NCBI GenBank assembly: GCA_963727525.1
Contig: CAVSGO010000001.1
Coordinates: forward strand, 1-22,821
Origin: an uncultured bacterium
GTDB taxonomy: Bacteria > Krumholzibacteriota > Krumholzibacteriia > LZORAL124-64-63
Reading direction: 5' to 3'
DNA: 22,821 nucleotides
Under the pieces are notes generated by a model. It was not told the origin of the DNA. It made no database searches and saw only the letters and a list, made by a program, of their open reading frames with translations. Shown in pieces: positions 3,487-14,600 of this stretch. The position numbers and the translations under genes were made by a program. Position 1 is the stretch's first letter. Every line of letters starts with the position of its first letter.

Positions 3487-6400
3487 ATGTCTGCACGACG
3501 ACGCATCGCCCGGCGCCTGCCGTGGCTCCTTGCACTCCTGGCCATGTCTTGCGGTCTGGCGCTCGCCACCGGCGCTCAGGCCATCGAATACAGCTACCCC
3601 GATAAGCTCTTCGGTGGCGACTACACGTTCTCACCCAGCGCAGACGAGATCATCGTGCGCCTGGCCACCGTCCCCGGTGGTATTGGCACTTCTGAAGTCG
3701 CGGCCATCGCCGCCGATGGCGGGCTGGATGTGGTGCGCGACGCCGGCGTCGCCGACAACCGCGTCGCCGTGCTGCGCACCCGGTCGGGCGGCTCGACCGT
3801 TGCCGCCCGCGCCACCCTCGCCGCCGATCCGCGCGTGACGCGGGCCTATCCGGCCCTGCGCAACGCCGACGGCACCACGCGTTACTTCGTGCCCGACCAG
3901 GTGGTCGTGCAGTTCCGCGGCGGCATGCGCGAGGCCGCCATGCTTGCCGATATCGCGCGGCTCGGTTCGCAGGTCGTAATCGACCACTGGACGCCGGGCT
4001 TCTACACGGTGTCGGTGCCCGAAGGCGTCGACGTATTCGACCAGGTGCGCGCGTTCATCGCCCTGCCGGACGTGGTGTTCGCCGAGCTCAGCACCATCTC
4101 CTACGACGACGGCGCCTTCGTGCCCAACGATCCGCTCTACGCGACCCAGTGGGCCTGCAATAACACGGGTGGCGGCGGTATGGTGGCCGACGCCGACGCC
4201 GACGTCCAGCAGGCGTGGGACCTCGAGCGCGGCGACCCGAACGTGATCGTCGCCGTCATCGACAGCGGCGTCGACTGGGACCACCCCGACCTGCAGCCCA
4301 ACATCCTCCAGAATCTGGGCGAGGACGCCGACGGCGACGGCCAGACCATGGTCTGGAACGGCAGCAACTGGGTCATGGATCCCGGTGACATCAACGGCAT
4401 CGACGACGACGCCAACGGCCGCATCGACGATGTCTTCGGCTGGGACTTCTCGGCCAACGACAACGATCCGAATCCCAACACCGCTGAGGACCAGCACGGC
4501 CACGGCACGTGCTGCGCCGGTCTAGTGGCCGCCGTGGGCAACAACGCCCAGGGCGTGTCGGGTGTGGCGCCAAACTGCCGCCTCCTACCTCTGCGGATCA
4601 ATCTGTTCAGCGGCATGAACCAGAACCGAGCCGACGCCATCAATTACGCGGTAGCCCAGGCACCGAACTACGGCGCCATGATCATCACTTGCTCCTGGAT
4701 CGCTTCCAGCGGCAGCACGATCTCCATCCAGAACGCCGTCAACGCCGCTCGTGCAGCCGACGTGCTGCCGCTGTTCGCGGCCGGCAACTCGAACAACGCT
4801 GTGCGGTTCCCGGCGAGTCTGGCGTCGGCCATGGCCATCGCGGCCACCAGTCCGTGCGACGAACGAAAGTCGCCCACGAGTTGCGACGGCGAGAACTGGT
4901 GGGGTAGCTGCTTCGGCGCGGCCCTCAGCGTGGGTGCACCCGGCGTGCAGATGCAGACGACCGACGTCATCGGCGGAGGCTGGTCGCCCGGCGCCTACCT
5001 GTCCAACTTCAACGGCACGTCGTCGGCCACCCCGTTCGCCGCGGGCATCGCCGCCCTGCTGCAGTCCAAGGCGCTGGAGCTGTTCGGTTCGCCACTATCC
5101 GCCAATGACTTGCAGGCGCTCATCGAGGACTCTGCTGAACAGGTGGGTGGGTACGCGTACCCCGGCGGCGTGTCCAATGAGCTCGGCCACGGCCGCGTCA
5201 ATGCCTTCGACGCGCTGAACCGGCTCATCATCGGCCCGGCCGTGGAGATCCTGCCCCCGCCGGTGGACATCGCTCTGTCGATCGACCGCTCCTACAGCAT
5301 GGTAGGCACGCCCATCCTGGCGGCCGAGAACGCGGCCGCGCAGGTGGTGCGGCTCATGGATGTGGGCGATCGCATCGCCGTCACCAGCTACAGCGGCGGC
5401 ACCAACCCCGGTGGCTTGCCCGGCTGGCCCGCATGGACGGACTACGCCACCACCACGATCATGAGCAACATCGACAAGGACGCTGCCATCGCCGCCATCA
5501 ACACCGGCGGCCACGTCTACGACCTGACGGCCATCGGCGCGGGCCTCACGCAGGCGCGCAACGAGCTGTTCGGCGCCTCGCCGGCGAACTACCCGCAGTC
5601 CATCATCCTGCTGTCCGACGGCAACAATACCGACGGTCCCGATCCGTTGACCCTTCTGCCGCTGCCGGCGCCGCAGCCGCATGTCTACACCATCGGCTTC
5701 GGGCCGTTCGCGGACGCCGCCACGCTGTCGGGTCTGGCCAGCGGCACCGGGGGCCAGTATTACTTCGCCGGCGGTACCGGCGCCAAGACGATGGGCGGCG
5801 AGTTGCCCATCATCCAGACCTACCAGATGTCGCTCATGCAGGCGACCGAACGGGAGAACCTCGGCTGGGAACGCGGCCAGATCCGCGACCAGGGCGAGGA
5901 GCGACATTTCTTCCAGGTCGATTCATCGTGTGATCAGATCCTCATCGGCCTGCTCTGGGGGCCGTACGACCCCGAGGCATTCAAGCTGTACCTGCAGGAC
6001 CCATCCGGCGTCACGTACGACTCGAACAGCCCCGAGTGGATCGGCGACATCACCCTGTCCGCGTTCCGCATCAACCGTCCCGAGCCCGGACAGTGGCTGG
6101 CGCAGGTCGTGCGCGTGGGCAACGGCCAGGGCAGCGGATACTACGACCTCAACCTCGCCGCCTCGTCGCGCGTGCAGTCGCAGCTCACGCTCATCCCGCG
6201 CGGCTGGAGCCTGCCGCTCACCATCCAGTTGCGCCTGTTCCAGCTCAGCCAGGACGAAGGCGTCGTTCCCCTGCGAAACTGCCAGGTGCCTTGCGCCGTG
6301 ACTTACCCCAACGGCGAGTACTCGCAGCTCCAGCTCAACGACGCGGGCCAGGACGGCGACGAGATGGCCGACGACGGCGTCTACACCGCCACCCTGCTCA

Positions 6401-8148
6401 ACACTGGCGACAGCGGCAACTACACCGTCGAGGCCACGGCCTACGGTCAGACCCTCGGCGGCGATCCGTTCACCCGCTACGACATGGCCAGCACCGTACT
6501 GCTGCGCGACGCCGTGCCCACGACACCCACGGTGGACCTACCCGACGTGGTGGCCCTGCATGGCACGGAACTCGAGTTGCCCATCGTCATCTCGCCACTG
6601 GTCGACTCGTTCGGCATCCAGACGCTGGAGCTGGGCGTGACGTACGACCCCGCCGTGCTCCAGCTCGGCGGCCTCGGCGACCTTTCCGGCACACTCTTGG
6701 AGAACTGGGCGACCCAGGTGGCCGACCAGGGCAGTGGCCTGCTTCTGACGGGCAGCGGGCCGGCTCTGCGGGGCAGCGGCATCCTCGCGCGCGTGAAGTT
6801 TCAGGTGGTGGGGGAACTGGGCGACGCCACGCCGCTCACGTTCAACCTCATCAATCTCAAGGACGGCCAGGGCAACCAGGTGCCCACCAATGGTCAAAAC
6901 GGCTCGGCGGTGGTGCAGTCGTCGCTCGAGGACCGTGTGCCCACGCCATTCGGACTGACCAATGGCTGGGGCTTGCGCTCGTTGCCGGTGGTGCTGTCGG
7001 ATGGCGAGACGCTGGCCGACCAGCTGCCCGCCGTCCAGGCGGTGCTGGGCTGGACGCCCAACGGCTACGACCAGACGCCGTCGCCCGAGGCGGGCCAGGG
7101 CTTCTGGCTGAGCTATGGCGGTCCGGACTCCGACGGCATCGTCACCGGCACGCCCCTGGGCATCTACACCCGCGAGCTGCCGGCCGGCTGGTCGCTGGTG
7201 GGCGGCCTGTTCGACCGGTCCGCAACGCCGGTAGTCGAGCCCACCACGGCCAACGCCGAGGTCTTCCGGTATGCGCCAAATCAGGGCTACTTGCCCGCCG
7301 TGCAGCTCGACCCGGGCCAGGGCTACTGGATCCACGTCGACGAGGCGGCCTCACTGACCGCCATGCCCGGGCAGAACAAGCAGGCTGACCGGCACGATGC
7401 CGACAAGGTGCTCACGCAGGCCGAGTTCACGGCCAACGGCGACGCCATGAGCGGCGTGCCGTCCATCAACTCCGTGGTGATCGGCGACGGTGCATCCGGC
7501 GACACGCAGGTGCCGTACCCGCCGGCGCCACCGGCATACACAACCCTGCTGCGCTTGCTGGCCGGTGGTGATGCGGGCTTCCCCCTCTACAGCGACCTGC
7601 GTGTGGACGCCTCGGGTCAGATGTGGTTCTTCGAACTGCAGGCCGGCGGCAACCAGAACGGCTCTGGCAGCACCGTGCGCTGGTACCCCGATCAGCTCCG
7701 CGCGATCCTCGATCAACCGTGGGTCCTGCATGAGGGCGTCGGCATCGGCGGCCCGGTGGTGGTGGCCGACATGCGCGAGACCAGCGAGCTGACCGTGAAC
7801 GACGGCGGCACGCACCTCTATACCATGGTCGTCGGCGCCGTCTCGGCGGTCGACGGCGAGTCGCTGCCCACCAGCTACGCGCTGGCAGGCAACTTCCCCA
7901 ATCCCTTCAACCCCCAGACCACCATCCGCTATGACGTGCCCCGTACCGGCCACGTGCAGCTCGACGTGTACGACCTGCGCGGCCAGCGAGTGGCCCGCCT
8001 GGTGGACGGCACCGTGGAAGCCGGCCGCCGCAGCGTGATCTGGAACGGCCGCGACGATCACGACGCCACCGTACCCAGCGGCGTGTACTTCGCACGTCTC
8101 AGCGCCGGCGGCGTGCAGCAGACCGGGCGCATGGTCCTGCTGAAGTAG
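3487..8148 (+). CDS. Secreted multidomain S8 (subtilisin-like) serine peptidase with VWA, cohesin-like and FlgD-Ig/T9SS-A-like C-terminal domains, 1553 aa
   Basis: Signal peptide ending AQA. Catalytic triad VAVIDSGVD (Asp at 4261), HGTCCAG (His at 4501), NGTSSATP (Ser at 5020), plus the oxyanion motif AAGN. VWA MIDAS DRSYS (5284), T in LTAIGAGL and ILLSDG. LNDAGQDGDEMADDGVYT motif. Cohesin-like block with YDPAVL...GSGILARVKF. C-terminal NFPNPFNPQTTIRY...WNGRD...SGVYFARL...MVLLK. AGGAGG RBS. Confidence 0.93.
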   Translation: MSARRRIARRLPWLLALLAMSCGLALATGAQAIEYSYPDKLFGGDYTFSPSADEIIVRLATVPGGIGTSEVAAIAADGGLDVVRDAGVADNRVAVLRTRSGGSTVAARATLAADPRVTRAYPALRNADGTTRYFVPDQVVVQFRGGMREAAMLADIARLGSQVVIDHWTPGFYTVSVPEGVDVFDQVRAFIALPDVVFAELSTISYDDGAFVPNDPLYATQWACNNTGGGGMVADADADVQQAWDLERGDPNVIVAVIDSGVDWDHPDLQPNILQNLGEDADGDGQTMVWNGSNWVMDPGDINGIDDDANGRIDDVFGWDFSANDNDPNPNTAEDQHGHGTCCAGLVAAVGNNAQGVSGVAPNCRLLPLRINLFSGMNQNRADAINYAVAQAPNYGAMIITCSWIASSGSTISIQNAVNAARAADVLPLFAAGNSNNAVRFPASLASAMAIAATSPCDERKSPTSCDGENWWGSCFGAALSVGAPGVQMQTTDVIGGGWSPGAYLSNFNGTSSATPFAAGIAALLQSKALELFGSPLSANDLQALIEDSAEQVGGYAYPGGVSNELGHGRVNAFDALNRLIIGPAVEILPPPVDIALSIDRSYSMVGTPILAAENAAAQVVRLMDVGDRIAVTSYSGGTNPGGLPGWPAWTDYATTTIMSNIDKDAAIAAINTGGHVYDLTAIGAGLTQARNELFGASPANYPQSIILLSDGNNTDGPDPLTLLPLPAPQPHVYTIGFGPFADAATLSGLASGTGGQYYFAGGTGAKTMGGELPIIQTYQMSLMQATERENLGWERGQIRDQGEERHFFQVDSSCDQILIGLLWGPYDPEAFKLYLQDPSGVTYDSNSPEWIGDITLSAFRINRPEPGQWLAQVVRVGNGQGSGYYDLNLAASSRVQSQLTLIPRGWSLPLTIQLRLFQLSQDEGVVPLRNCQVPCAVTYPNGEYSQLQLNDAGQDGDEMADDGVYTATLLNTGDSGNYTVEATAYGQTLGGDPFTRYDMASTVLLRDAVPTTPTVDLPDVVALHGTELELPIVISPLVDSFGIQTLELGVTYDPAVLQLGGLGDLSGTLLENWATQVADQGSGLLLTGSGPALRGSGILARVKFQVVGELGDATPLTFNLINLKDGQGNQVPTNGQNGSAVVQSSLEDRVPTPFGLTNGWGLRSLPVVLSDGETLADQLPAVQAVLGWTPNGYDQTPSPEAGQGFWLSYGGPDSDGIVTGTPLGIYTRELPAGWSLVGGLFDRSATPVVEPTTANAEVFRYAPNQGYLPAVQLDPGQGYWIHVDEAASLTAMPGQNKQADRHDADKVLTQAEFTANGDAMSGVPSINSVVIGDGASGDTQVPYPPAPPAYTTLLRLLAGGDAGFPLYSDLRVDASGQMWFFELQAGGNQNGSGSTVRWYPDQLRAILDQPWVLHEGVGIGGPVVVADMRETSELTVNDGGTHLYTMVVGAVSAVDGESLPTSYALAGNFPNPFNPQTTIRYDVPRTGHVQLDVYDLRGQRVARLVDGTVEAGRRSVIWNGRDDHDATVPSGVYFARLSAGGVQQTGRMVLLK

Positions 8149-8256: not shown

Positions 8257-8301
8257 TGACGCGTTTTGGTCAATATCGTTTTCTTGTGCGGGAGGCCCAT
8301 C

Positions 8302-8922
8302 GTGTTTCGCCTCGCCATTCTGTCCCTTCTCCTGCTCCTGCTGGTCGCAGCCCCCGCGGTCGCTCAGCTCGCCCCGTACTGGATTCCCGACGAAGGTTGC
8401 GAGCTCGCGCGGCAGTTCGGCACGTCGATGACCCAGTACTACCGCGGCGAGAATTCGCTGGACCTGAGCATCACCTCCGACCACGTCGAATACCATATCG
8501 AGGTCTATTCCTGGGATGGCAACGACGGTCTGTGCCGGTCGCGCAACGATTACCCGGGCATGGATTACGTGATCTATCGTTATGATCCGCCGCTGAAGGT
8601 TCTCCAGCTTCCGCTCTCGGTGGGCGCGACATGGACGAGCGAGTCGGTGCGGACGCGACAGGGCGGAGGCTCGATCCCTCGCACGATCACCCTGTCCAGC
8701 GCCGTCGTCGGCGAATCGAACGTCGAGACCGAAATCGGTACGCTCCATGTCTTTGAAGTCACCGAGGTCGTGACCTCTGAACCGGGCGGATTCACCGACA
8801 CCACCACCCGCCTCCTCAATGACCAGTTCGGCGACGTGAGCGGCCTCATCGGGATGGACGGTTGCACGACGGTGGCCGACGAACCCTTCTCCTGGGGAAG
8901 CGTGAAAAGTCTGTATCGTTGA
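8302..8922 (+). CDS. Secreted hypothetical protein, 206 aa, with C-terminal SWGSVKSLYR tail
   Basis: GTG at 8302 preceded by GGAGG (8291-8295). Signal peptide FRLAILSLLLLLLVAAPAVA. Beta-rich body with LPLSVGATW and ESNVETEIGT...FEV segments. Conserved tail. Confidence 0.8.
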   Translation: MFRLAILSLLLLLLVAAPAVAQLAPYWIPDEGCELARQFGTSMTQYYRGENSLDLSITSDHVEYHIEVYSWDGNDGLCRSRNDYPGMDYVIYRYDPPLKVLQLPLSVGATWTSESVRTRQGGGSIPRTITLSSAVVGESNVETEIGTLHVFEVTEVVTSEPGGFTDTTTRLLNDQFGDVSGLIGMDGCTTVADEPFSWGSVKSLYR

Positions 8923-9025
8923 TGGCGTGGTCGCCAGACGCGATCGTGCATAGATTGCCGGGCGCGGGCATCCCGACGCAATCCCGCGCTTGTCCCGCCT
9001 CGCTCGACACCGCGGAGGAACGCAG

Positions 9026-9379
9026 GTGACCATCGAAGCCGCCCAGGATGCCGCCCGACGCAAGGGCGTCGACAGGATCCGCCGCCATATCTTCCTCTGC
9101 TGCGACCAGGCCGAACCGAAGTGCTGCGCGAAGGACGCTGGCCTCGCGAGCTGGGCCTTCCTCAAGAACCGCCTCGAGGAACTGAACCTCACGGGCGACG
9201 GCGGCATCTACCGCACGAAGGCGAACTGCCTGCGCATCTGCCGCCAGGGCCCGATCGCCGTGGTCTACCCCGAGGGTGTGTGGTATCACTCCTGCACACC
9301 CGACGTCCTCGAGCGTATCATCCAGGAACATCTGATCGGCGGCCGACCCGTGGCCGAATACGTGCTGCAGGCGAAGTAG
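9026..9379 (+). CDS. Thioredoxin-like [2Fe-2S] ferredoxin, 117 aa
   Basis: RHIFLCC..., [28 protein letters not shown] and [15 protein letters not shown] at 9026 with a GGAGG RBS. Confidence 0.9.
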
Positions 9380-9403
9380 CCGAACGCAGACTCCTCGCGC
9401 GGC

Positions 9404-9583
9404 AATGAAACGAGATCGAGGTTATTCTCCACCGAGCTGATCGTGGCCTTCGCCGCCATCTTCGTGAGCACGGCCACACTGTTCGTCTCTATCTACCAGA
9501 CTCGCATCATGCTGTCGGCCACGATGGCCGTGCATGGCGAGCCGATTGCCGGCTGCTGTATCTGCAGTGCGGGCCGCATTTGA
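9404..9583 (+). pseudogene. Start-less fragment of a single-TM membrane protein gene
   Basis: Frame reads RLFSTELIVAFAAIFVSTATLFVSIYQTRIM, a protein-like TM helix resembling the N-terminus of a common hypothetical family, then degenerates to TGA at 9581-9583. No RBS or ATG upstream of the helix. Confidence 0.45.
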
Positions 9584-9615
9584 CGCAAGACCGCTGGCGG
9601 GATGAAGCGTAACGA

Positions 9616-10386
9616 TCAGCGGTAGAGGCTCTTCAAGGCGCCCCAGGTTTCGCGCTCGATCGTGACCGGGTCGCAGTCGCTGTCGTCGATGACATACGCG
9701 CCATCGAGCAACCAGCGCGCGAGATCGAGCGTGCAGCAGTGGAAGGCCGCCGCACATCCTTCATCCAGTTCCCCATCCTCGTGACCGGAACTTCCGGTGT
9801 TGTCGGCGATGGTCGTGCCGTACGCCGTGAGCGTCGAGCCCAGACCAATCTCCACGCCCCCCGGGTAGAAGAGGCTCGCATTGCCCGAGATCTCGCAGTC
9901 GATGAACGTGGGCTGACTGCCATAGATCGCCACGCCACCGCCGCCACGCGCGTAGTTGCCCGTGATGACGCAGCGGACGACGGTGAGCGCCGACCCGTAC
10001 GACACGTCCAGACCGCCCCCGGTCGCACCGAAGAACGAATCGTTGGCATTGCCCCCAGTGATCGTCAGCCCCTCGATCCGCGTGGCGTCGTCGACGCCCG
10101 AGCAGAAGAGGATCGAACCGAAGCCCTGCGGCTGCTGGCCGTCGATCGTCACGCAGTCAGGCTGCCCGGTCGCGCTGCGCAGGGTGATACCGGACTTCAT
10201 CATGATACCCCAGGCCACATAGGTTCCGCACGCCAGCTCGACGACGTCGCCGGCCACCGACGAATCGATCGCGGCCTGGATGGTCGGCGCGTCACCCGTA
10301 CCGACAGGATCGACGTACCAGATTCGCGCCTGTGCCGGACCATTGGCGAGAATCAGACACAGGAATGCGGGAATCCCGATGCGCAT
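9616..10386 (-). CDS. Secreted right-handed parallel beta-helix (pectin-lyase-fold) protein, 256 aa, with C-terminal TWGALKSLYR tail
   Basis: ATG at 10386 with an AAGGAG RBS. Signal peptide ending AQA. VDPVGTGDAPTIQAAID...GDVVELACGTY, IEGLTITGG and repeated C.I.GN.A..GGG turns. Confidence 0.88.
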   Translation of the reverse strand: MRIGIPAFLCLILANGPAQARIWYVDPVGTGDAPTIQAAIDSSVAGDVVELACGTYVAWGIMMKSGITLRSATGQPDCVTIDGQQPQGFGSILFCSGVDDATRIEGLTITGGNANDSFFGATGGGLDVSYGSALTVVRCVITGNYARGGGGVAIYGSQPTFIDCEISGNASLFYPGGVEIGLGSTLTAYGTTIADNTGSSGHEDGELDEGCAAAFHCCTLDLARWLLDGAYVIDDSDCDPVTIERETWGALKSLYR

Positions 10387-10968: not shown

Positions 10969-11137
10969 GGATCTCCTTCAAGCAGTCCCCATAGTGGGCA
11001 TCCGCATTCCAAACTGCCTTTTCGACCGGCATCTCCCCAGTCGACCGACTCAAGGCCTCGAGTGTAACACACCTTCGCCGATCGATCTTGCCGGATGCGC
11101 CGGGGATCCCTGAACATCTGGCGACAACGCAGACGTC

Positions 11138-11203
11138 GGAAAACGACCATTGCCGAAAGGGCACGTGTGGCAGGACCTCGTCGACGAGGTGCGCAGCGAC
11201 GTC
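11138..11203 (-). pseudogene. IS91-family (rolling-circle) transposase remnant
   Basis: DVAAHLVDEVLPHVPFRQWSFS matches the AAHLVD.VLP.VP.RQWV.S segment that follows the zinc-binding domain of IS91-type transposases. The flanks do not continue the homology. Confidence 0.6.
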
Positions 11204-11383
11204 TGGTCGATGGGCGACGAGACATTTGCGACCTTCGCCGCGGCCGACAACATCGTGCGCGAAGGACCGGGCATGACGGGCATCGGGACGCCAACGTCGC
11301 GCAGTACCCCTGGGGAGCCCCACACCTCACAGAGACCGTTACGCCGCCGCAGTAGCGATAGCATGAATAAGGTGGGCTCAGAG

Positions 11384-11584
11384 AGACCAGCGCGATCGCC
11401 CTGGCAGAATGGCTACTGCGAGCACGTGATCGGCACCCGCGAGCGCGAACGCTCGCACTCCGTCATCGTGTTCAACGGGGCTCATGCTCGACACCTGCTC
11501 GAACAATTCCTCGAGGACTACCGATCGAACCGCCCGACGAGTGACAGATCGAGTCTTGACAGGGCACAAGGGCCCCGACTCTAG
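11384..11584 (+). pseudogene. Integrase-core (rve, IS3/IS481-like) transposase remnant
   Basis: RSPWQNGYCEHVIGTRERERSHSVIVFNGAHARHLLEQFLEDY...SLD matches the C-terminal core pattern SPWQNG..ER.IG..RRECLDHVIV..E.HLR..L..Y, with degeneration. The N-terminal part is missing. Confidence 0.7.
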
Positions 11585-11632: not shown

Positions 11633-14600
11633 TCAGCGGACGAGCATGAGCTTGCTCGTCTGCACCTCACCGTCCGCGTCCAGCCGCAGCAGGTAAGTCC
11701 CCGAGGCCAGGGTGCGCGGCGCGAAACGCACTTGATGCAAACCCGCGGACATGTCGCCATCGGCGAGGTCGGCTACGCGGCGGCCGGCCACGTCGTACAC
11801 CCGTAGCTTGACCCTCGCGTCATGGGTCAAGGTGAAGCTGATGTCCGTTATCGGGTTGAATGGATTAGGGTTTGCGCCCTGGAGTATCACCAGCGGCGTG
11901 GATGTGGGCGGCGTGACGGGGTGGAGTCCGTCCTGCGCCCCCGTGATCGTGGACCTTCCGACCGCGCGCAGGATCGTGCCGTCCAAGCCTACGGCCCAGC
12001 CGTGCTGCGTATCGACGAAATCAACGGCCTCGAGACTCCAGTCGCCGTTGCCGATCATCTCCTGCCAGCTACTGCCGCCATCGTTCGTCCTGACGCCGTG
12101 CCCCGACGCTGCGCTGCTGCCGACGCTCCACGCATGCGTCGCGTCCACGAACTGGATGTCGTGCAAGTACTGGTAGAAGTTCGGATCGGAATCGAACCGC
12201 AATTGCCACGACTGGCCCCCGTCCGTGGACTCGAAGATCTTCCCGGTACCGGTGGTGAGCCACCCATGGTCCTCGTCGAAGAAGTCGAGCCCGAAGCCGC
12301 TGTCGTCCCCCGGGATCACTCCCGGGATCCAGTGCATGCCGCCGTCAGTCGTGTGGAGCGCCTGGCCGTTGCGGCCCACCGCCCAGCCGTGCAAGAGGTC
12401 GATGAACTCGACGTTGTACAGCGCGTCGCTGGCTCCGATGTCCTGCATCTGCCAGCTCGCGCCACCATCCTCGGTATGCAGCAGAACCCCTATGCCGGAC
12501 AGTGTGTCCCCGCCCACCGCCCAGCCGTGCTGCTGGTCGACGAAGGTGATCACGCGCAACCGCAGAGAGGTGGGCGTGGGTTGGACGACCCAGGTCGTGC
12601 CGCCATCGGCGGTCGCCAGGACCAGGCCGTCGTCGCCACAGATCCAGCCCGTCTGCTGGTCGAGGAACGTCACGCACCAGAGGGCATGCGACGTGATACC
12701 CGCGTGAACTGCCCAGCTGTCGCCGCCGTCCGTGGTCGAGAGGATCGCACCATACTCGCCTACTGCCCACCCGTGCACGGAATCGGTGAAGTCGACGCCC
12801 CGCAGTGCACTGGAGACGGGACTGGCGAGCTGCTCCCAGGACGTACCCGGGGTTCCGAAGAACATGTTCTCGTAGATCTGTAGACCGGCGTCACCATCGC
12901 TGGTGAAAACGTACTGGTCCCGTGCCACCAGCCCCTGCGGCGCGTCCGGGGTCCTGAAGTCGCCGACGAACACCGGGCTGGTCGGATCGTCCACGCTGAT
13001 CAGCCCCAGATTGTAGAGACCGGAGGAGACGACGAACCCGCCGCCGACGTCCAGGTCGAAGGAACCCGCGCTATGGTACAGGTGTCCCAACTCCTGCGGG
13101 TTGGTCGGATCGCTCACGTCCTCAACGTAGAGCCCGTCGGGACCGACGATGCTTCCCACGTAGAGCAGGTTTCCCTCACGCGCGACGTCCGCGGCATACG
13201 CGCCGTGGGTGTCGATGGTGGCCACCTGGGTGATCTGCTGTTCAGGATTCGACACGTCCAGGACAAGCACGCCGGACTGGTCCGCCGCCACGTACGCGTA
13301 CTGTCCGTCGGACAGGATCGCGCTGGCGAACTCGGTGGGCAGTTCGAACCCGCCCAGCTCGACGGGCGCGCCCGGGTTCGTGACATCGAGCACGTGCAGA
13401 GTCTTGTGCTGGTTGCCTGGGGGATTGTCGAGGACGTAGGCGCGCGCGCCGACTGCCGCCACCCGCCAGGCGTTCGGCAAGTCGGTGTCGTCCCCCAGAA
13501 CCGCGGGGCTAGTCGGGTCCGAGATGTCGATGATGCGCAGGCCATCGGCGTCGGCGGCCAGATAAAGGGTGTCGCCCTCGATGGCGAGATCGGACGCTCT
13601 ACCGTCTCCGTCGATCTGAGCGACCCGCTCCGGGTGCTCCATGTCGCTCAGGTCAATCACGTTCAGGCCGTCAAAGGAGGCCGCGACGAAGGCGTAGTCG
13701 CCCACCAGGCGAGTCTCGAGACTGGGCTGGTACGTGGTATAGGAGCCGACGATGTGCGGCGCGCTGCCGTCGCCAAGCTCAATGGTCTCGAGTCCCGCGA
13801 CATCCGCATAACCCCGATCTGCCAGATAGAGGTATCCCTGCGCAACCGCCAGGTGCTTCGGCGAATTGGGCAGGGACATGGTCCCGACCAGATCGGGAGA
13901 AGAGGGATTCTGGAGATCGTACACGGACAGTCCGTTCGTGTTCGCAATGTAGAGCATGTCGCCGTCGAAGGCCATGTCGTCGAGGAAGCCGAGGTGCAGC
14001 GTGGCGAGAGTGGGAAAGCCGGCGGCAGTCATGTCGACGATGTCTTCCTGGACGAAGCCCGGTCCGTGGTGCTCGAAGCAGGCGACCCGATCGTTGGCGG
14101 CGACAGTGCCGGCGCCATAGGAGTCCGTGCCGAAGGCGTCCGACACGTAGATGGAGCCGTCGGCATCGAGTTGCCCGGCCGCGGTGACGGTGAAGCGCGT
14201 GTAATAGAGCGAGTCGGTGGCATGGAGCTTCCCGTCCTCGGGAGAGACGTAGAGATCGGCCACGCGTTCGCTGCCGACGCCTCCGCCGGTGGCGACCGGG
14301 TTCAAGGGGTCGGTGACGTCCACCACAAAAACCCCGAAGTCGCCGATGGCGGCGAAGTGCTCCCAGACGACGACGGTATTGGCGTCGCTCACGCCGAAGC
14401 CGAAGAACTCCACCGTCTGGGAAAGAAAGGCCGGTGCGGTCGGGTTCTGGACGTCCCAGATCTCGAGACCTTGACTTCCGCAGGCCATGAACAATCGCTG
14501 TGTCGCCGGATCGTAGGCAATGTCCTTGACGAGTCCACGGGTGCGAATCTCGTCGTCGACGAGGGTGGGATTGGCCGGATCGGTCCCATCGAGGATAAGT

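Follow-up and report, generated by a model that had tools for sequence, protein, structure and literature searches.

The closest described relative of the system reported here is the secretion system of type IX (T9SS), whose type A C-terminal domain (CTD; TIGR04183/PF18962, with the FlgD_ig-like PF13860) is a folded beta-sandwich of about 70-100 residues that ends diverse, Sec-exported passengers. A passage of PMC11285876 describes this folded CTD as essential, and a passage of PMC8545088 describes PorU as the sortase that removes the CTD and attaches anionic lipopolysaccharide (A-LPS). A second group of systems, comprising PEP-CTERM/exosortase, LPXTG/sortase, GlyGly-CTERM/rhombosortase and MYXO-CTERM/myxosortase, places a signal peptide and a short C-terminal tag on unrelated passengers and pairs many such proteins with one dedicated enzyme, the gene of which sometimes adjoins that of a substrate. 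Here we describe a short C-terminal tail found on two exported proteins in a 22,821-nucleotide stretch of DNA from an uncultured member of the Krumholzibacteriota (GenBank assembly GCA_963727525.1, contig CAVSGO010000001.1, positions 1 to 22,821; hereafter the window). The reading that we favour as a whole, that the tail is a genuine and undescribed sorting tag, serves as an alternative to the T9SS CTD and is read by a dedicated PorU-like C25 cysteine peptidase, has in our judgement about an even chance of being correct.

The tail shares with the CTD its C-terminal position on Sec-exported and diverse passengers; both occur in the same genomes and on homologous passengers, and the candidate reader of the tail belongs to the family of PorU, the enzyme that processes the CTD. 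It differs in being only about 20 residues long, with at most a two-turn helix. Its likeness to the tripartite systems lies in the signal peptide, the short tag and the apparent many-to-one pairing with an enzyme, whereas it has neither a transmembrane helix nor a basic tail, and the candidate enzyme is soluble and predicted to be exported to the surface rather than embedded in a membrane. Its upstream V-x-x-E-P stretch loosely recalls the PEP motif.

Two unrelated exported proteins in the window share a C-terminal tail

The genes and tags concerned are as follows, in window positions:

8266..8922, forward strand: tail gene 1, exported protein of 218 amino acids (aa) that lacks any known domain; GTG at 8302 is an alternative start
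8863..8919, forward strand: tag of the 8266-8922 protein, CTTVADEPFSWGSVKSLYR; stop codon 8920-8922
9616..10386, reverse strand: tail gene 2, exported right-handed beta-helix protein of 256 aa (Pfam Beta_helix, 7e-08)
9619..9675, reverse strand: tag of the beta-helix protein, CDPVTIERETWGALKSLYR; stop codon 9616-9618

A sequence-only reading of the window had singled out these two ends as a conserved tail on otherwise unrelated secreted proteins, and closer analysis bears out each part of that description. The two tails are identical at 10 of 19 residues without a gap, right at the stop. Conservation is at the protein level, since synonymous codons differ: only 2 of the 10 identical residues share a codon (a Cys, TGC, and the Trp, which has a single codon), and 33 of 57 nucleotides are identical. 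The bodies are unrelated and the proteins are not full-length homologues, as BLASTP between them aligns the tail alone (E 0.001) and the remaining segments reach no better than E >=9. Both proteins pass a lenient signal-peptide heuristic, the beta-helix protein with the signal-peptide-like start MRIGIPAFLCLILANGPAQA. The 8266-8922 protein has no Pfam or NCBIfam family and scores 35.7 bits against the tail profile introduced below. Neither protein matches the T9SS type A CTD model (TIGR04183/PF18962), even at E up to 1, and neither has a Pfam Dockerin_1 match.

The tail marks about 2% of the proteome and is confined to C-termini

The window is contig C1 of an eight-contig, 4.66-Mb genome of 67% G+C (G000), and we scanned all six-frame open reading frames (ORFs) of at least 40 aa in this genome for the tail. 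For the core motif WG.[ILVMA]K..[YFW] we counted 58 occurrences, 54 of them within 5 residues of a stop, where composition alone predicts about 1.9 occurrences anywhere and about 0.06 at C-termini, which excludes chance. An iterated 23-position tail profile with a cut-off of 15 bits, which also takes in W-S and F-G variants, finds 92 C-terminal matches and a single internal one. The tail thus extends well beyond the two window proteins, is restricted to C-termini and is carried by about 2% of the proteins of G000. Its consensus is V-[AP]-[TV]-E-P-x-[ST]-[WF]-[GS]-x-[VI]-K-[SA]-[LM]-[FY]-[RQEN]-stop, over some 17-23 residues. The Lys is the sole invariant column among 64 aligned tails and is invariant in three alignments. 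The second-to-last residue is aromatic; the last, in the 54 seed tails, is mostly R (32), followed by Q (6), E (4), N (3) and G (3), and up to 5 extra residues are tolerated C-terminal to the motif.

Signal-peptide-like starts are strongly enriched among the carriers, being present in 73 of the 84 members of at least 150 aa (87%) versus 1443 of 4793 gene-like control ORFs (odds ratio 15, Fisher P ~1e-26); the heuristic was deliberately lenient and was applied equally to members and controls. Together with the passenger diversity described below, the count, the C-terminal restriction and this enrichment support the sorting-type tag proposed by the sequence-only reading, and we consider the tail very probably a genuine sorting or recognition tag. 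The conserved Cys that the same reading had stressed did not survive the wider comparison, being present up to 16 residues upstream of the Trp in only 31 of the 92 members.

The tag is undescribed and is uncatalogued by Pfam and NCBIfam. The 64 aligned tails match no NCBIfam model at E up to 10, sorting-domain models included, no curated model in either collection matches the tail, and the passages returned by full-text literature searches contain no description of the tag or of the peptidase group discussed below. Several known identities were also considered and set aside. A tripartite anchor of the PEP-CTERM or LPXTG type, in which a hydrophobic transmembrane segment and a basic cluster come after a signature motif, is excluded because none of the 92 members has, within its last 25 aa, a stretch of more than 13 residues free of charged or strongly polar ones. 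PEP-CTERM ancestry was rejected in the absence of both a transmembrane segment and an exosortase (PF09721 has 0 matches in G000, which is 96.67% complete). The beta-signal of outer-membrane proteins, in which an alternating hydrophobic pattern leads up to a terminal aromatic residue, does not fit, the aromatic residue being second-to-last rather than last, and dockerin identity (PF00404, a duplicated calcium-binding loop-helix of about 60-70 residues) was rejected for a tag of about 20 residues with no repeats.

A tag of this kind need not have a reader at all. Exported proteins could be tethered to a membrane surface by the tail itself, as an interfacial amphipathic helix with Trp, Phe/Tyr, Lys and Arg at the interface, much as the membrane-targeting sequences of MinD and FtsA do. 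A terminal helix is indeed predicted, its residues are of a kind typical of interfaces, and 71 of 91 tails have a net charge of +1 or +2 over their last 10 residues. The amphipathicity is unremarkable, with a mean helical moment of 0.41 in the tails versus 0.31 in control C-termini, 31% of which reach the tail median; and lipid-binding helices tolerate change, whereas here the Lys is invariant and the Trp, the Gly, the upstream Glu and the Ser/Thr are conserved across phyla. We therefore regard self-anchoring as very unlikely. The short amphipathic helix of the sequence-only reading is predicted at low confidence, and its amphipathic character is modest. The AlphaFold2 model of the window beta-helix protein has a mean predicted local distance difference test score (pLDDT) of 63.9, falling below 50 from residue 194 onward, and because the model is poor its tail helix deserves little weight.

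The extreme C-terminal position of the tail is also where periplasmic tail-specific or PDZ proteases read their substrates, which raises the possibility of a turnover or quality-control tag. Unlike PDZ ligands, the tail has a variable final residue (R, Q, E, N, D) and tolerates up to 5 further residues. A degradation signal also sits badly with some 2% of the proteome, with stable-looking binding modules and with the alternation between tail and secretion domain described in the next section, and this explanation appears highly improbable.

Tag and T9SS type A CTD alternate on homologous passengers

Tagged proteins are mostly small binding-type modules, with a median length of 289 aa versus 760 aa for CTD carriers. 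BLAST sorts the 89 passengers into 57 families, of which 51 have a single member. Pfam assigns a family at E <=0.001 to 32 of 80 members scanned and to none of the other 48. Beta_helix/NosD (10) is the most frequent, ahead of CHRD (4), NIDO, LTD and PPC (2 each), and the remainder include cohesin, DUF642, Calx-beta, DUF4397, CBM_4_9, cupredoxin, Temptin_C, DUF7450 and GH28. Across these 80 proteins no Pfam model covers the tail and Dockerin_1 (PF00404) is absent, in keeping with a tag that has no D-x-D-x-D-G repeats.

The same genome makes extensive use of the T9SS CTD, with at least 150 matches to the type A models (209 first-look candidates) and 241 ORFs by a local profile, and none of these 241 carries the tail. 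For 21 of the 89 tail passengers there is a same-genome homologue that bears a CTD instead. The window beta-helix protein is among them, with nine such homologous passengers (best E 1.4e-23). On passengers that are interchangeable, the tag therefore stands where a known domain for secretion and anchoring would otherwise be, and is an alternative to the type A CTD that works in parallel with it.

The genes for the two kinds of protein also lie near each other somewhat more often than expected. CTD genes flank tail genes 23 times, versus about 8.5 under label shuffling, and an excess of only about 2.7 times fits secretome islands; a strict pairing of T9SS cargo with tail gene was rejected at this modest level of adjacency. 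One such pair lies in the window, where the end of a subtilase gene is followed after 117 bp by the 8266-8922 tail gene:

3487..8148, forward strand: upstream subtilase, 1553 aa, which combines VWA and a cohesin module with a CTD of T9SS type A (Pfam, NCBIfam)

Its cohesin module occupies window positions 6529-6906 (Pfam Cohesin, 26.2 bits, above the cut-off) and its CTD positions 7894-8136 (35.7 bits).

Elsewhere in G000 we noted two-gene cassettes in which a small T9SS-CTD protein comes first and a beta-helix protein second, the latter about 390 aa long, with RTW.VEKDGSGD at its start and a WG tail at its end (G000:C7:5619-7094 and G000:C8:263359-264834; also C5:2222-4807, C7:9603-11118 and C8:111541-116352). 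Their third-position G+C is unusually low (0.49-0.68 versus about 0.8), and two copies have identical N- and C-terminal stretches at contig ends, which suggests recently acquired DNA or a mobile repeat that breaks the assembly.

A PorU-like C25 peptidase is the candidate reader

The sequence-only reading had proposed looking for a protease, transpeptidase or transporter family that co-occurs with the tail, and across phyla a PorU-like C25 peptidase does so. In G000 it lies beside tail genes:

G000:C7:1681884-1686260: candidate reader, 1458 aa, on the same strand as two tail genes and directly downstream of them

The protein matches Pfam Peptidase_C25 (PF01364, 1e-45), its C25 region spanning about residues 690-1160, and ends in a CTD of its own; as a CTD-bearing protein, and thus itself T9SS cargo, it should sit on the cell surface. 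Like PorU (NF033707) and the PorU2 of the putative PorU2/PorV2 pair (NF052324/NF052325), it keeps the His/Cys pair, with His981 and Cys1023 invariant in 25 orthologues, as well as the C25 domain and the terminal CTD. It differs from both in several ways. It falls below both model cut-offs, with 157.9 bits against 420 for PorU and 63.2 bits against 450 for PorU2, while the true PorU of G000 reaches 436 bits and has PorV adjacent. Identity to that PorU is 22%, in an alignment over the N-terminal and C25 domains. In the sample of the window's phylum, the orthologue locus is always distinct from the canonical PorU locus. In a tree of C25 sequences (90 sequences, 1001 columns, FastTree LG+gamma; the truncated Ocan_G202, Xcan_G205 and Cloa_G203 left out), the 26 canonical PorUs, which come from two phyla, group together with support 1.0 and 64 of 64 paralogues fall outside that group, a split that marks the paralogue as an old, separate orthologous group. 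PorV pairing is typical of PorU, though not strictly defining; a PorV-like ORF lies beside canonical PorU in 20 of 20 loci and beside the paralogue in 0 of 41 loci in the window's phylum and 0 of 20 in a second set. As judged from models, tree and gene neighbours, the candidate reader is a third type of PorU-family peptidase, neither PorU nor PorU2.

Barrels of the PorV/PorQ family are not scarce in G000, where at least 7 are full-length. The barrel at C7:967258-968259 resembles PorV2 at 145 bits, below the cut-off. Two others (G000:C7:361732-362532 and G000:C2:60417-61232) begin immediately behind the CTD of very large proteins (open frames of 2327 and 2842 aa) and may form dedicated cargo-shuttle pairs with them. 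One Eisenbacteria genome, G211, encodes the PorU-like paralogue three times, with two of the copies arranged in tandem (G211:C12:19548-27654 and G211:C49:1662-5336).

The peptidase gene follows genes for tagged, cohesin-like proteins

We examined gene linkage at 40 orthologue loci drawn from across the families of the window's phylum, plus the G000 locus itself (L081, G000:C7:1676001-1694000). In 35 of these 41 loci, 1-5 same-strand tail ORFs of about 185-330 aa lie directly upstream of the peptidase gene. In three of the six misses the available upstream sequence is shorter than 1 kb; the others are L092, L094 and L117. Two tails in the 41 loci are labelled as downstream, one of them through a negative distance (L102), and none is on the opposite strand. 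As a control, we looked at the flanks, about 6-7 kb, of canonical PorU loci in these genomes, and 0 of 20 contain a tail ORF.

The tail proteins upstream of the peptidase are homologous to one another, a single family of 94 members in 37 loci, with a tail detected in 80. They are part of a conserved cluster with the order MltG (19 loci), a protein of about 220 aa (33), the tail family, the peptidase (41), a SpoIID/LytB-like protein (35) and a glycoside hydrolase family 3 (GH3) NagZ-like protein (30). The peptidase cluster is thus embedded among cell-wall remodelling genes, conserved in 19-35 of the 41 loci. The AlphaFold2 model of the tail family has a mean pLDDT of 86.6 and shows a confident beta-sandwich (residues 35-180), then a linker and, where the sequence reads W-G-x-V-K-x-L, a short helix at the terminus (residues 205-211, pLDDT 57-68), an arrangement that fits a tail appended as a flexible peptide. 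Nearly all of the Foldseek matches listed for the sandwich are cohesins, at probability 1.0, and the top 18 VIA-align matches are all cohesins (Z 9.0-12.2, root-mean-square deviation 2.5-3.8 A over 115-138 residues). As modelled, the operon-linked tail family has a cohesin fold; its members L063 and L064 have no Pfam family at E <=0.001, Pfam cohesin (PF00963) included. Two loop-helix repeats close the protein of about 220 aa, which falls in Atlas clusters in which 14-19% of members bear Dockerin_1. Among 33 orthologues, 9 match Dockerin_1 at E <=0.1, one of them above the cut-off, and the G000 copy has no match.

The likeness to cohesin-dockerin systems is therefore in the company that the tail keeps: the peptidase-linked tail proteins are cohesin-like in fold, and the cluster starts with a protein that has a divergent dockerin-like C-terminus. 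The tag itself is too short, lacks duplicated calcium-binding loops and has no Pfam match, and most tagged proteins have no cohesin module. One could nevertheless suppose that the tail docks non-covalently, as a dockerin-like ligand of minimal size, onto cohesin-fold modules of surface scaffolds, in assemblies that would resemble cellulosomes and might be exported piggy-back with T9SS cargo. The structural matches of the operon-linked family speak for this, as do the cohesin module in the T9SS-anchored subtilase of the window, 117 bp upstream of a tail gene, the excess of CTD genes flanking tail genes and the prediction of the tail as a short terminal helix. It is harder to reconcile with the scarcity of cohesin modules in a genome with about 92 tagged proteins, since Pfam finds 4 in 3 proteins, and a body-only module profile finds 8 ORFs and misses its own seed. 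The cluster's own dockerin-like protein is a more natural ligand for a cohesin, the tail has no calcium-loop repeats, and the monomer model places the tail on its own cohesin without confidence (pLDDT 57-68). On balance we think docking unlikely.

For the peptidase as reader, the mechanism that we propose follows the analogy with PorU. Sec would export the tagged proteins. The dedicated PorU-like peptidase, itself T9SS cargo, would then recognise the tail and cleave near the conserved V-x-x-E-P-x-[ST] stretch, and the passenger would be released or attached to a surface acceptor. Recognition, cleavage, attachment and the outer-membrane route are all inferred.

A bolder variant, which we consider quite unlikely, makes the enzyme a pilus-type transpeptidase that cleaves one tail and joins the new C-terminus to the tail Lys of another protein or to peptidoglycan. 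Covalent polymers or wall-linked arrays of cohesin-fold subunits would then display the dockerin-like protein together with tagged modules, and sortase-and-pilin logic would have evolved independently on a T9SS chassis in a diderm. This variant draws on the Lys being the sole invariant residue in three independent alignments, on the 1-5 tandem substrate paralogues beside the enzyme, an arrangement like that of pilin clusters, and on the cell-wall enzymes that flank the cluster (MltG in 19 of 41 loci, SpoIID/LytB-like in 35, NagZ-like in 30). The next structural matches after the cohesins are sortase-assembled pilins, at Z <=8.1, a similarity that may be generic.

Tag and peptidase occur together across apparently related phyla

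A degenerate DNA pattern for W-G-x-I-K-x-h-Y-R-stop matched at least 132 loci. Among the matches listed, 118 are genuine in context. Positions left free in the pattern repeat the preferences of the G000 consensus in tails of other genomes, with Ser/Thr at -1 in 120 of 130 tails and Glu at -4 in 68. The record titles among the matches listed are Eisenbacteria, Krumholzibacteriota, Latescibacterota, Cloacimonadota, Zixibacteria, Fibrobacteraceae, Gemmatimonadota, UBP1 and Effluviviaceae, with the proviso that labels of metagenome-assembled genomes may be loose. The occurrence in Krumholzibacteriota and Eisenbacteria that the sequence-only reading had put forward is borne out. Tails and full-length orthologues of the candidate reader are distributed over five phylum-level samples as follows:

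Window's phylum: tails 201/201; full-length orthologue 61/61 (60 by single-protein search, G009 by profile)
Eisenbacteria: tails comparably counted in 6 genomes; full-length orthologue 37/41 (36/40 without the unpublished G220)
Third phylum, 12 species: tails 12/12; full-length orthologue 10/12
Cloacimonadota: tails 0-1 per genome; full-length orthologue 0/41
Zixibacteria: tails 0/41; clear orthologue 0/41, with one borderline match of 356 bits

The tag is used by apparently related, mostly uncultured phyla, namely the window's phylum, the Eisenbacteria, the small third phylum and an Effluviviaceae-labelled genome. Eight single genomes with 13-59 tails (G201, G202, G204, G205 and G298-G301) all have a full-length orthologue, and two with 0-1 tail matches (G203 and G297) have none. 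Among the Eisenbacteria, G206 has 26 tails and a C-terminal orthologue fragment, and G228 has neither tails nor orthologue. Linkage recurs outside the window's phylum as well: of the 10 genomes of the third phylum that have the orthologue, at least 5 show it preceded by a tail ORF whose end lies about 380-510 bp upstream, and G202, G204, G298, G299 and G301 show likewise tight linkage.

In 10 of the 41 Cloacimonadota genomes we observed a single protein of 238-260 aa with a tail-like end (for example at G248:C1:1114872-1114934 and G262:C22:29320-29382), which may be an ancestral or relict carrier.

Taking linkage and co-occurrence together, we put the chance that the PorU-like C25 peptidase reads the tag at about one half. 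Several observations weigh against this assignment. The linkage comes from one vertically inherited cluster and a single tail-bearing family (the cohesin-fold family of 94 members in 37 loci), and is thus close to a single evolutionary observation. It is loose in the Eisenbacteria, where a same-strand tail ORF lies within 2 kb upstream in 2 of 20 loci and within 7 kb in 6 of 20, same-strand homologues of the cohesin-fold family lie upstream only at 4-9 kb, in 7 of 20 loci, and a SurA/PpiD-type chaperone gene usually sits between. The paralogue lacks the adjacent PorV partner. Co-occurrence is imperfect, as G217 and G222 have orthologue-like fragments and no detectable tails, and G287 (41 tails) and G289 (29 tails) have only partial C25 matches of 181 and 157 bits; completeness is not stated for these four genomes. 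The tail count at E 1e-6 was too strict for the Eisenbacteria, reducing G201 from 43 to 4 matches, so that only six genomes were comparably counted. Because the tag-bearing phyla appear to be related, any clade-specific gene would give the same profile. Finally, tail proteins with only a Sec signal would still need a route across the outer membrane to reach a surface peptidase.

Some of these observations would be expected if a genuine sorting signal were read by another machine, be it a PorV/PorQ-family barrel, the T9SS translocon, for which the tail would be a minimal export signal, or an envelope protein of a kind not yet described. In that case the only ties of the peptidase would be to the cohesin-fold and dockerin-like proteins of its own cluster. 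This would account for the single tail-bearing family that is gene-linked to the peptidase, for the loose linkage in the Eisenbacteria and for the two tail-rich genomes without a full orthologue, and the barrels of G000, at least 7 including the PorV2-like one, offer candidates. Against it, the class of the peptidase is the sole enzyme class known to process C-terminal T9SS signals, and the peptidase tracks the tag across the five phylum-level samples, in a co-occurrence profile that covered the peptidase only. We judge another machine to be unlikely as the reader.

Other features of the window

Between the two tail genes, window positions 8990-9379 (forward strand) hold an ORF of 129 aa with paired Cys-Cys motifs. 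Overlapping ORFs in differing frames at about 11095-11584 (forward strand) adjoin a gene ending in a T9SS CTD (11645-11869, reverse strand); we take their translations to resemble pieces of a transposase or integrase.

Implications for surface building in uncultured phyla

The way in which bacteria build their surfaces is defined by C-terminal sorting tags, and every tag-enzyme pair described so far (sortase, exosortase, rhombosortase, PorU) has opened a field. In whole phyla of uncultured bacteria from soil and sediment, the tag described here is carried by about 2% of the proteome, and annotation pipelines miss it; naming it would reclassify thousands of hypothetical proteins as envelope or surface proteins. 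The candidate peptidase, with its catalytic residues kept, makes the hypothesis of a dedicated reader testable at the bench. If the pairing is true, it suggests that the T9SS sortase family has diversified toward signals far smaller than the folded CTD, which bears on how T9SS cargo is recognised and could supply a very short tag for surface display.

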